Below are positions 2,561 through 32,987 of a stretch of 64,000 nt of DNA, one piece after another. Location: assembly GCF_988243305.1 (NCBI RefSeq), contig NZ_OZ547136.1. One strand, 5' to 3'. The first letter of the stretch is position 1. Each line of letters begins with the position of its first letter. Made by a program: the position numbers and the translations under genes. The notes beneath the pieces are model-generated. The model ran no database searches. It saw only the letters and a program-made list of their open reading frames with translations, and was not told the origin of the DNA.

Positions 2561-17189
<14,629 letters not shown>

Positions 17190-17293
17190 ATCAGCATACT
17201 TGTCCTTAGCCTTCTGCAGTGACAGCTGGTAGTACAGCGTGCTTCTGGCCAGCCCTGCAGCCTTTAACAGGTCAGACTGGCAGTGTCCGCATC

Positions 17294-17824
17294 TCAGGCT
17301 CCGGATGACTTTCGTTTTTTCTCCAGCTCCTGGCGCTTTTTTTCCAGGAGATGCTCCTGCATGGCTTTCAGATATGCATTTTCTGCGCGAAGATAACGCA
17401 GCTCATTCTTCATCTCTTCCGGCGTCATGTTTGCCTCGTTTTCATGGGTATCATCAGAACGGGTCATGCTTTTCTCCTTCCTGCGCCTGATAAAGGCCTC
17501 ATCACCAGATTTGCGGTAGCCTTTTATCCAGTTTTTAACCGTGTTGTGGCTGGGAATGTTAAACCGGGCAGCTACCCGGGGTAGAGACTCAGAATGCCCG
17601 AGAGCATAAAGAACCACGCAAAGTTTATCTTCAGGAGAATAGCTACGCCTGTGTCTGCAATCCAGTGCCCGAGGACCGTGAAGAAGAAAAAGATTAATCC
17701 AGTGTGAGAGGCTGGTGTGAGAAAGTTGAAAGAGTTTTGCCGTAGAAATGATGCCAGCATGACCGGCCAGGTAATGATTTACAGCGGCAAGTTTTACTTC
17801 AAATGAATGTTTCATAAACTGCAC
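17294..17824 (-). CDS. IS3-family transposase OrfA (HTH DNA-binding, leucine-zipper C-terminus)
   Basis: 176-aa ORF; slippery heptamer A AAA AAG at 17336-17342 near its 3' end. Confidence 0.8.
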   Translation of the reverse strand: MQFMKHSFEVKLAAVNHYLAGHAGIISTAKLFQLSHTSLSHWINLFLLHGPRALDCRHRRSYSPEDKLCVVLYALGHSESLPRVAARFNIPSHNTVKNWIKGYRKSGDEAFIRRRKEKSMTRSDDTHENEANMTPEEMKNELRYLRAENAYLKAMQEHLLEKKRQELEKKRKSSGA

Positions 17825-17986
17825 CTTCAGATGTCAGATTATGTCCAACATTTGGGGTGCAGTTCACAAGCGTCGTATCCGGCATTTCCAATGGGCGTAT
17901 TCTTTTTGAATCCCATCACAAACCCCGCACTCCCCTTTTCCCTTTTCTCCGGCGACGGCTAAATTAGAACTCATCCGACCACATAA

Positions 17987-20032
<2,046 letters not shown>

Positions 20033-20049
20033 ATCGTTATTTGAAGCGC

Positions 20050-20070
20050 CGGATGCGACGCATCCGGCAC
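20050..20070. terminator. hairpin/REP-like terminator after fadH
   Basis: gccggatgcgacgcatccggc perfect palindrome directly after the fadH stop. Confidence 0.45.
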
Positions 20071-20076
20071 GTCGCG

Positions 20077-20493
20077 TTAATCAATAAACAAGGCGGGAGA
20101 AATGCCGAATCGCGTTGCCAGTTTTTTAGCGTGTTCCAGCGTTAATTTCCTCTTCCCGCTCAAAACGCGTGACACCATGGATTTACTGCCAATTTCCGGA
20201 AGATCGGAAAGGGTTAAACCATATTGATCCATAAGGGTACGAATCACGGCTATACCGCCAGGCATGGCTTGAGCCATGGCATTAAATTCAGCAAATTCGG
20301 GCGCTGATTCTTCCCACGCGGTTATTTTGGCACACACCAGATCCAGCAAGGGATTTTCAGGATCGTTGAGCAGCAGATGATCTACCAGTTCCAGCGCCTG
20401 GGTGTATTGTTCCTCGTTCTGAATACCCGCCAGAAAAGGTGCCACAGCAGTTAGCTTTTCTCCTGCTTGCAAGATGTCGGCAATCGCAATCAT
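20077..20493 (-). CDS. higA: antitoxin HigA (HTH, Xre-like)
   Basis: C-terminal 138 codons of the 177-aa track ORF equal K-12 HigA (MIAIADILQAGEKLTAVAPF...). Confidence 0.8.
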   Translation of the reverse strand: MIAIADILQAGEKLTAVAPFLAGIQNEEQYTQALELVDHLLLNDPENPLLDLVCAKITAWEESAPEFAEFNAMAQAMPGGIAVIRTLMDQYGLTLSDLPEIGSKSMVSRVLSGKRKLTLEHAKKLATRFGISPALFID

Positions 20494-20610
20494 TTTTTCC
20501 CCTTTGAAATATCCCTTAGCAATCGTGTTCCCCAGAGCCACCAACTCCGTTTTATGTTGCGGGTATTTTTCCGCAGCATCTTTCAATGCTTTTTGAGTTA
20601 TCAGGTGCAT
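20494..20610 (-). pseudogene. higB: higB toxin remnant: first ~36 codons fused in frame to higA
   Basis: track ORF begins MHLITQKALKDAAEKYPQHKTELVALGNTIAKGYFK (HigB N-terminus as I recall it) then runs GEK-MIAIADIL into HigA; rest of the 104-aa toxin absent. Confidence 0.5.
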
Positions 20611-20749
20611 TCTTCATCACGTCCGTTGACAGATTGGCAACGAATGAATTTATCTGTGTGACGGAAGAATAAACGTAGAAAAATGCTAAACAAGAGAATG
20701 TAGAGGATGGTGACAGGGATTTTTTGTTTTATGGAAGCGCGATTCCAGA

Positions 20750-20865
20750 ACTGGGCAGACATTGCCGGATGCGACGCTTGCCGCGTCTTATCCGACCTGG
20801 GGGTAATGTGCTGAACGTAGGCCAGATAAGGCGTTTACGCCTTATCTGGCAGGTAGCTGCCAATC
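20750..20865. repeat. BIME/REP cluster between higB remnant and rlmG
   Basis: gccggatgcgacgcttgccgcgtcttatccgacc and aggccagataaggcgtttacgccttatctggc palindromic units. Confidence 0.5.
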
Positions 20866-22002
20866 TTACCGACGACGCCCCAGCTTCACCGCTTTCAGCA
20901 CCACAAATTTATTATTCGTGGCGATGGTGGTGCAGTTGCCGAAAATCTTCTTCAGTTTATGGAAGTAATCCAGGTGACGGTTGGCAACGATATACAGCTC
21001 GCCGTTGATTTTCAGACAGCGGCGGGCGTGGTGGAACATCTCCCAGGCGACGTTATCGGTCAGCGCATGTTGCTGATGAAACGGCGGGTTGCAGAGCACA
21101 GCATTAAAGCGGAAAGGCTCCACGCCGGAGAGCGCGTTGTTGATCATAAACTCGCAGCGATCCAACGCCTCTGGCATGTTGGTTTCAACGTTCAAACGGC
21201 TGGAAGCAACCGCCATCGGCGATTCATCGACAAACACCACTTTCGCCTGCGGGTTTTTATCAAGCAGCGTCAGACCAATAACGCCATTACCACAACCGAG
21301 ATCGACAATCTCACCTTCGAGATTCTCTGGCAGATGCTGCATAAAGAAGCGCGCGCCAATATCCAGCCCGGTGCGGGAGAAGACATTCGCATGGTTGTGG
21401 ATAGTCCAGTCAGTACCTTCCAGTTTCCAGCTAACGGTCTGCGGCGCATCGGCCAGCGGCGGCTCGTTGAAAGTACAGTTAATTAAGCGTGCCTTCTTCC
21501 ATGCCAGCGTGGTGGTGGTAGGGCCGAGCACTTTTTCGAACAGTTCCAGCGTGGAAGTGTGGATGTCACGGGCTTTGGCACCGGCAATAATACGTGTATC
21601 CGGCGTGACCACTTTGCGCAGCGCACGCAGTTGTTGTTCCAGCAACGCCAGTGTTTTCGGTACTTTGATCAGTACCACGCCCGGCTGTTGCGGGTAGTCG
21701 GCGGTGCTGTCGAGAAACTTCACGCTCGACTCATCAATCCCGTTGAGGCGTAAATTCTCGCGCGTCGCCAGTTCGCTGATGTATGAGTCGCCAATGCTGT
21801 ATGGCTTATGTTCCGCCAGCACACAACTTAACGCACCAAAGGCATCATTCAGGATCAACACCGGGCCGCGGATTTCTGTGTCGTCCAACTGTTGCAGCAA
21901 ATATTCATCCGCCGCTTCCCACGCCTGTAGTGGGTTAACGTCATCCGTCGCCGGAAAACGTTGTAGTGTCAGTGAACGGAAACCGTTGTCTAAGTGGCTC
22001 AT
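20866..22002 (-). CDS. rlmG: 23S rRNA (guanine1835-N2)-methyltransferase
   Basis: 378-aa ORF with SAM-binding motif (VDLGCGNG) matching K-12 RlmG/YgjO. Confidence 0.9.
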
Positions 22003-25664: not shown

Positions 25665-25769
25665 TTCGCTGTATATTAAGCCATTACTAGAGATAACTCA
25701 TTCCAGACAAAGGTGAGCTATTAATTATGTAATCGGCTTATAGCTCTTTACAAAAAGACCGCACGGGTG

Positions 25770-25995
25770 TTGGTGGCGTCAAAATCGCCGAAGCGTTCCC
25801 TGGAGGCCGGGGCGACGCGCATGGATGCGCGGCGAGGGCGCATCTTACAGGGACGTTCCCTTGCGCCCGACCCGGTAGCCGCAAGGGATAAGCTGAGGGA
25901 ACCGCGCAGCGGCGATTTTGTTCGCCAGAGCCTGGGGGTGCAGGGGGCGGCGGCGATTGGCCGCCCCCTGCGCGCTCCCTGCGGTAGTGACTTTA
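25770..25995. other. GC-rich structured intergenic element of unknown identity
   Basis: ~68% GC block flanked by AT-rich DNA; long-range inverted repeat ggcgtcaaaatcgccgaagcg / cgcagcggcgattttgttcgcc plus internal hairpins. Confidence 0.3.
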
Positions 25996-26279
25996 TATGG
26001 CATAGCACATTAAAGGAGCGCAACCGTTCTCATATACCAAATAGTTTTGCCCATATGTTATCTAATCAGCCTTAGTAGCCAGTCCTTCCCTCTGTTTATG
26101 TCAAATAAATGTAACCATTAAGTTGCAAAATATGACCTCTCTTTAAAATCCAGCATTTTTCGCTTCCCGAAGCTGTAACTTTCCTTATACTCGACCTTGC
26201 AAACACTTTGTTACATCCTGAAAGATGCGTCGACAGAACGCACCAGGGATGTGCGACAACACAATGAAAGGATCGAAAA

Positions 26280-32858: not shown

Positions 32859-32987
32859 GGCTTCGTGTAAGTTTTAGTTTCCCTTCAAAGCCGCCTTCTC
32901 AGGCGGCTTTTTCATCACTGTGAGTAGAGCTAAACTCGCAAAAGTGGTATAACAAATATAGTCTGCCGTATCATGCCTGGAGCGCAT

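Follow-up and report, generated by a model that had tools for sequence, protein, structure and literature searches.

In Escherichia coli K-12 the toxin-antitoxin operon higBA (ygjNM; structures 5IFG, 6KML and 5YCL) lies between rlmG and fadH. At the same site, the 64-kb stretch of DNA analysed here, which we refer to as the window, has a single 177-aa open reading frame (ORF) on the minus strand. Is this ORF what remains of a toxin gene and its antitoxin, a functional protein in its own right, or an error in the assembly? A previous interpretation made without database searches (the sequence-only reading) had proposed that the toxin gene was deleted internally while the antitoxin gene was retained, and the alignment to a K-12-like locus, the PDB sequence matches and the Pfam domains all agree with this proposal. 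The ORF itself is present in the ORF list with the sequence that had been quoted for it; it starts with ATG, and the ORF finder listed it as a single ORF on the minus strand. The features of the locus are collected in Table 1.

Table 1. Features of the higBA locus in the window, with positions counted from the first nucleotide of the window.
Feature	Position	Strand	Basis or remark
fadH	18014-20032	+	Flanking gene, as at K-12 higBA (ygjNM)
177-aa fusion ORF, HigB(1-36) + Gly-Glu-Lys + HigA(1-138)	20077-20610	-	ORF list, translation, PDB sequence matches
Intact higA, 138 aa	20077-20493	-	ATG 20493-20491, TAA 20079-20077; 100% identical to 5IFG_B
Shine-Dalgarno-like AAGGGG of higA	20499-20504	-	Read from sequence, same as in the K-12-like locus; predicted function
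Junction of the 194-bp deletion, 2-nt AA microhomology	20503-20504	-	Comparison with the locus of strain 5A (L002)
higB 5′ remnant, codons 1-36 of 104, toxin pseudogene	20503-20610	-	Identity to K-12-like higB over 108 nt
Single 29-bp promoter/operator unit, TTGCCAATCTGTCAACGGACGTGATGAAG	20612-20640	-	Alignment, repeat analysis, promoter scans
rlmG	20866-22002	-	Flanking gene, as at K-12 higBA (ygjNM)

The two parts of the ORF were readily assigned. Residues 40–177 were identical to E. coli K-12 HigA at 138 of 138 positions (PDB 5IFG_B, E = 6.5e-86), and residues 1–40 aligned to HigB (5IFG_A, E = 2.2e-17) with identity running through residue 36. The HigB N-terminus and the full-length 138-aa HigA had therefore been named correctly in the sequence-only reading. 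The peptide at the junction between the two parts is ...GYFKGEKMIAIADILQAGEK. The higB remnant also occupies the place expected of the toxin gene, which comes first in the operon, ahead of higA, between rlmG and fadH. The homologues available for the fusion protein are more than 90% identical, which makes their alignment too shallow for a trustworthy structure prediction.

The domain content of the ORF is that of the antitoxin. In intact 104-aa HigB the Pfam domain HigB_toxin (PF09907) spans residues 20–92 (E = 4.4e-22). A Pfam search did not detect this domain in the 177-aa ORF, in which the sole match was the HTH_3 domain of HigA at residues 123–174. Since the PF09907 region is lost and the fusion keeps only HTH_3, the toxin is dead. 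With the toxin cut to 36 of its 104 codons, the locus is not a functional type II toxin-antitoxin module, and no further HigB homologue besides the 36-codon remnant was found in the 64-kb window. K-12-type HigB is not recognised by any NCBIfam model. The NCBIfam antitoxin model TIGR02607 (antidote_HigA) has a curated cut-off of 47.7 bits, which neither the fusion ORF (18.0 bits) nor K-12 HigA (18.7 bits) reached; as K-12-type HigA itself falls outside the model, this score is uninformative on the window copy.

The alignment to K-12 higBA that had been suggested was made with the K-12-like locus of strain 5A, which encodes a HigB of 104 aa and a HigA of 138 aa, and this base-by-base comparison placed the junction at 20503/20504. 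Relative to strain 5A, the window lacks exactly 194 bp, corresponding to nucleotides 109–302 or codons 37–101 of higB. The two loci share an identical run of 108 nt starting at the higB ATG and another that covers the 11 nt before the higA ATG; 2 nt (AA) belong to both runs. The right breakpoint lies directly 5′ of the AAGGGG of higA, which survives and is followed after 5 nt by the higA ATG, the spacing and the sequence both being unchanged, so this predicted ribosome-binding site is common to the two loci. We found no copy of the deleted 194 nt elsewhere in the window. The internal loss of about 68 HigB codons that had been proposed is thus real in kind; its extent is codons 37–101, and the last three codons and the stop remain as DNA.

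Those remaining nucleotides explain how the toxin remnant and the antitoxin came to share one reading frame, which they do not do in K-12. In the intact operon the end of higB overlaps the start of higA in the sequence ATGA, and the two genes are in different frames. The terminal higB sequence ...AAG GGG AAA AAA TGA is now read as AAA GGG GAA AAA ATG (K-G-E-K-M), and the last three higB codons and the stop are translated in the higA frame as Gly-Glu-Lys. As 194 equals 3n + 2 and is not divisible by three, the fusion owes its common frame solely to this overlap of different frames; the chance of such an in-frame result is 1 in 3. The fusion is therefore in frame, as had been proposed, but the deletion that made it is not.

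The window has 833 bp between fadH and rlmG, the K-12-like locus 1,055 bp. The shortening that had been noticed (a spacer of 834 bp, about 200 bp below expectation) is real, but it amounts to 222 bp and only part of it is in the toxin gene: 194 bp are missing from higB and 29 bp from the promoter, with a 1-bp indel in the opposite direction. REP-like palindromic elements (GCCGGATGCG...CGCATCCGGC) flank higBA at 20033–20076 and 20770–20865. The higA–fadH spacer is 44 bp long in the window and in some of the other genomes with the same deletion, and 92 bp in others, in which there is one extra REP-like copy.

The distribution of the allele, which we refer to as Δ194, was determined in 5,426 complete E. 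coli genomes, a collection from which Shigella is excluded. Junctions were counted with a query that the deleted allele alone can cover. The 5′ end of higB is present in 2,846 genomes, and 20 of these (0.37% of all 5,426) have the identical Δ194 junction. Another ~1,525 genomes (4,371 minus 2,846) have higA without the higB 5′ end, and ~1,055 gave no match to the queried higBA segment (window 20300–20760). The allele is thus rare and widely scattered among other E. coli and is not private to the window, which answers the survey that the sequence-only reading had suggested. It is also already known: in all 20 genomes the NCBI annotation pipeline PGAP records a pseudogene, 'higB, incomplete, missing C-terminus', next to a separate intact higA. 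In public protein collections, at least 999 contigs and 2,128 index blocks contain the exact 177-aa protein, under names that vary between 'mRNA interferase HigB', 'antitoxin HigA' and 'hypothetical protein'.

These counts bear on the possibility that the missing 194 bp are an artefact of sequencing or assembly. An artefact is excluded by the 20 independent complete genomes, sequenced in different laboratories and on different platforms, that have the same junction, and the presence of the exact protein on so many contigs points the same way. The converse arrangement, an ancestral short form with an insertion in K-12, conflicts with the content of the 194 bp. They encode the core of the solved RelE-like fold and PF09907, from which it follows that the ancestral, functional state is the long form. 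We give an artefact or an ancestral short form practically no chance of being correct.

The 20 carriers and the window together comprise at least seven higBA haplotypes, and the genes on either side differ among them by up to 125 of 2,019 nt in fadH and up to 46 of 1,137 nt in rlmG. Between positions 20300 and 20760, the window is identical to the group of strain FDAARGOS_1285 at 460 of 461 nt, whereas its fadH differs from that of the same group by ~6%; this combination of near-identity and divergence indicates that the region is a mosaic. We considered a repeat-driven deletion hotspot, as CTAAGGG...AAAAAA is found near both breakpoints, and rejected it: the junction lies off this motif, and AA alone is shared. 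With 2 nt of microhomology and the nearby motif off the breakpoint, recurrence of an identical deletion seems unlikely. Most likely, a single old deletion event was spread by descent and by homologous recombination.

The variation in fadH is an observation in its own right. Among otherwise similar E. coli, fadH alleles vary by ~6% (125/2,019 nt), far above the adjoining rlmG or higA, which points to imported alleles or to a region of frequent recombination. At least 64 nt separate the window fadH from that of every Δ194 carrier examined, and none of six loci encoding the exact 177-aa protein matches the window in its flanks. The closest complete E. coli genomes reached 98.0% over 15 kb around the locus and fadH, and 99.2% over 24 kb (36000–60000). 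None of the complete E. coli genomes in RefSeq is identical to the window, and its lineage, which may be Shigella or a poorly sampled branch of E. coli, is unrepresented among them.

Several other differences from FDAARGOS_1285 (L014) were seen in the neighbourhood. A 3.4-kb insertion is present in the window between ygjK and fadH (14445–17877). One part of it is a 513-aa ORF (14733–16274), which contains three internal repeats and matched no NCBIfam model; strain MEW has at the same position an equally long ORF (1,542 nt), annotated as 'hypothetical protein'. The insertion also holds an IS3-family element, with orfB at 16467–17189 (300 bits to NF033516) and orfA at 17294–17824. Between sstT and alx, the window has a segment of ~430 bp (25667–26094) where FDAARGOS_1285 has ~137 bp. 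Two elements of FDAARGOS_1285 are absent from the window, a 5.4-kb CS1-type fimbrial operon between exuR and exuT (window ~32872–32976) and an IS4 insertion near ebgR (5686–5697).

The larger class of genomes with higA and without the higB 5′ end proved to be of another type. In an evenly spaced sample, 11 of 11 such genomes had the arrangement of CFT073, in which, as in NRG857c, an orphan higA between fadH and rlmG has already been described (PMC7232551). The CFT073 type resembles the window in that the toxin is destroyed and higA is intact at the same locus, and its higA DNA haplotype is identical to that of the Δ194 carriers A25 and DCE7. The lesion itself is different. A deletion of ~324 bp covers the promoter/operator together with two thirds of higB at its 5′ end and leaves a 3′ remnant ('missing N-terminus' in RefSeq), so that there is no fusion ORF. 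This type is also far commoner, with ~1,525 of the 5,426 genomes compared with 20 for Δ194. Each of the two alleles keeps the end of higB that is missing from the other, so the CFT073-type deletion is independent of Δ194, and by this comparison of alleles there have been two or more independent toxin-killing deletions at higBA. Orphan antitoxins turned out to be very abundant across sequence types in a survey of 950 E. coli genomes, especially in phylogroup B2 (PMC10790755). The window shares with these cases an antitoxin gene that outlives its toxin, and differs in that the event is defined to the base and the toxin remnant is fused to the antitoxin.

Compared with K-12-like higA, the retained higA has five synonymous and no non-synonymous differences. 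Across nine haplotypes of higA there are 11 synonymous and three non-synonymous polymorphic sites (pN/pS ~0.085), a pattern of polymorphism which shows that HigA is under purifying selection in general but which may predate the deletion and is not assignable to the orphan state. For the same reason, namely that the divergence may be older than the deletion, the low pN/pS is no proof of selection on the orphan gene.

We also asked if the 177-aa HigB′–HigA protein could itself be functional and selected, with an extension, made up of the first two helices of HigB, that alters dimerisation, stability or DNA binding. The ORF is open in 21 of 21 copies, the window included, across at least seven haplotypes and without indels; the 108-nt remnant shows one synonymous and one non-synonymous change; and the exact protein is widespread. 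However, 108 nt with two SNPs are far too short for selection to be detected, and an open frame was to be expected in one case out of three. As higA has its own ribosome-binding site, the extension is not needed for making HigA. The frequencies also speak against a selected fusion, as Δ194 is rare and the extension-free orphan higA of the CFT073 type is ~75 times commoner, and the window copy in addition lacks the predicted −10 element described below. On balance we regard a selected function of the fusion as very improbable. If the fusion protein were made, its extension need not block DNA binding, since the HTH of K-12 HigA is C-terminal (PMC6987408).

The window carries a second lesion, which had escaped the sequence-only reading and which bears on its question of continued HigA expression. 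In K-12-like loci, two tandem 29-bp promoter/operator units, TTGCCAATCTGGCAACGGATGTTATCATA and TTGCCAATTTGTCAACGGACGTGATGAAG, are located upstream of higB. Each contains a palindrome, and repeat analysis showed that the 12-nt arms of the first palindrome are perfect. In a structural study of E. coli HigBA from 2016 (Yang et al., BBRC), two operator palindromes were reportedly described, and helix alpha-1 of HigA is said to mediate dimerisation. One of the two units is absent from the window. The unit that remains, TTGCCAATCTGTCAACGGACGTGATGAAG, is a hybrid of the two K-12-like units, as expected from slippage or unequal exchange between them. It keeps a −35-like TTGCCA and one imperfect palindrome, CGTTGCCA-ATC-TGTCAACG, and the operator palindrome motif is common to both loci, whereas the predicted −10 hexamer TATCAT is lacking. 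In the K-12-like intergenic region of strain 5A, the sole good sigma-70-type match was TTGCCA-16 nt-TATCAT (10/12, with TG before the −10), and the −10 hexamer of this match falls in the unit that is missing from the window. A promoter scan of window positions 20000–20900 found no sigma-70-like site. For K-12 higBA, Christensen-Dalsgaard et al. (2010; PMC2814082) mapped one promoter, which lies upstream of higB; they saw no transcription start in front of higA and showed that HigA represses the operon. The promoter that they mapped is presumably the TTGCCA-16-TATCAT match of our consensus scan.

The loss of the unit was traced in the same genomes with a reverse query for the TATCAT-containing junction, which gave a clean split: the unit boundary with TATCAT is present in 2,829 of the 2,846 genomes that have the higB 5′ end and missing in 17. 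A figure of 344 genomes from a junction-specific query for the single unit was discarded, as two-unit alleles reached 85% coverage across two mismatches. The 17 genomes consist of five Δ194 carriers and 12 genomes with intact higBA (e.g. UTAK-1). Among the Δ194 carriers, five genomes have one unit, as does the window, 14 have two units, and one (STEC299) has three. The 29-bp unit is thus a tandem repeat with copy-number polymorphism (compare window 20612–20640, L002 860–917 and L004 2846–2932), and the unit that varies bears the predicted −10 TATCAT and a HigA-type palindrome. Single units are enriched in Δ194 carriers (5/17 vs 15/2,829; Fisher p = 6e-8, uncorrected for shared ancestry), which hints that toxin loss makes further decay of the promoter easier. 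A single unit may not amount to a dead promoter, since 12 genomes pair it with an intact higBA.

With the promoter taken into account, the locus might be transcriptionally silent and higA a relic that has yet to degrade, with no function as an orphan antitoxin. The single K-12 promoter and the lack of a start site upstream of higA (PMC2814082) are consistent with this, as are the absence of the predicted −10 unit and of any detected promoter-like site in the window; the enrichment of single units in Δ194 carriers, with the same reservation about phylogeny, would fit continued decay. Yet higA is intact and encodes a protein identical to K-12 HigA, and intact orphan higA is retained in ~1,500 genomes. 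Transcripts could still arise from a weak promoter or by read-through from rlmG, the upstream gene on the same strand, and in the 12 genomes mentioned above the same single unit precedes an intact higBA. A silent relic therefore has an appreciable chance of being the right description, though we think it doubtful.

Very probably, the locus is instead a decayed chromosomal type II higBA in which a 194-bp deletion killed HigB, intact higA was retained, the allele is old rather than new and transcription is likely to be weak. The sequence shows that an illegitimate deletion at 2 nt of microhomology removed codons 37–101 of the RelE-like mRNA interferase HigB, after which no functional HigB is possible. 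The 36 remaining higB codons were shifted by the same event into the overlapping higA frame, giving the 177-aa ORF, while higA, its Shine-Dalgarno sequence and one operator palindrome were left untouched. The proteins made from the window allele, if any, we infer from its sequence: transcripts would yield normal 138-aa HigA from its own ribosome-binding site and some 177-aa HigB′–HigA from ribosomes that start at the higB ATG. HigA would then serve only as an orphan repressor or antitoxin. In the window copy, transcription is probably weak or absent, because the unit with the predicted −10 is missing and the K-12 operon has one promoter. The most economical reading is that of an orphan antitoxin in the course of decay.

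The copy-number variation also allows another interpretation of the promoter, in which the 29-bp unit, at one, two or three copies, would be a slippage-prone switch of higBA expression. While the toxin is intact, selection would act against loss of the −10 unit, as the stable toxin would be set free once the labile antitoxin was no longer made; in cells without the toxin this loss would be tolerated, and the enrichment of single units in Δ194 carriers would thereby be explained. If this were true, the toxin would 'addict' the cell to the toxin's own promoter. We consider such a switch, or its weaker variant in which the fusion is a functional repressor, to be unlikely.

What the window contains is an ordinary toxin pseudogene with a retained antitoxin in a well-studied toxin-antitoxin locus, and its significance beyond correct annotation is slight. 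The correct annotation is a higB pseudogene and higA, and not the 177-aa 'HigB' or 'hypothetical protein' of some public records. The copy-number polymorphism of the higBA promoter/operator unit is a small side observation. As a whole, the locus is a clean, base-resolved example of the toxin-first decay of chromosomal toxin-antitoxin modules: two or more toxin-killing deletions of independent origin, as well as one complete loss, segregate at this one site, so that ~28% of complete E. coli genomes carry an orphan higA.
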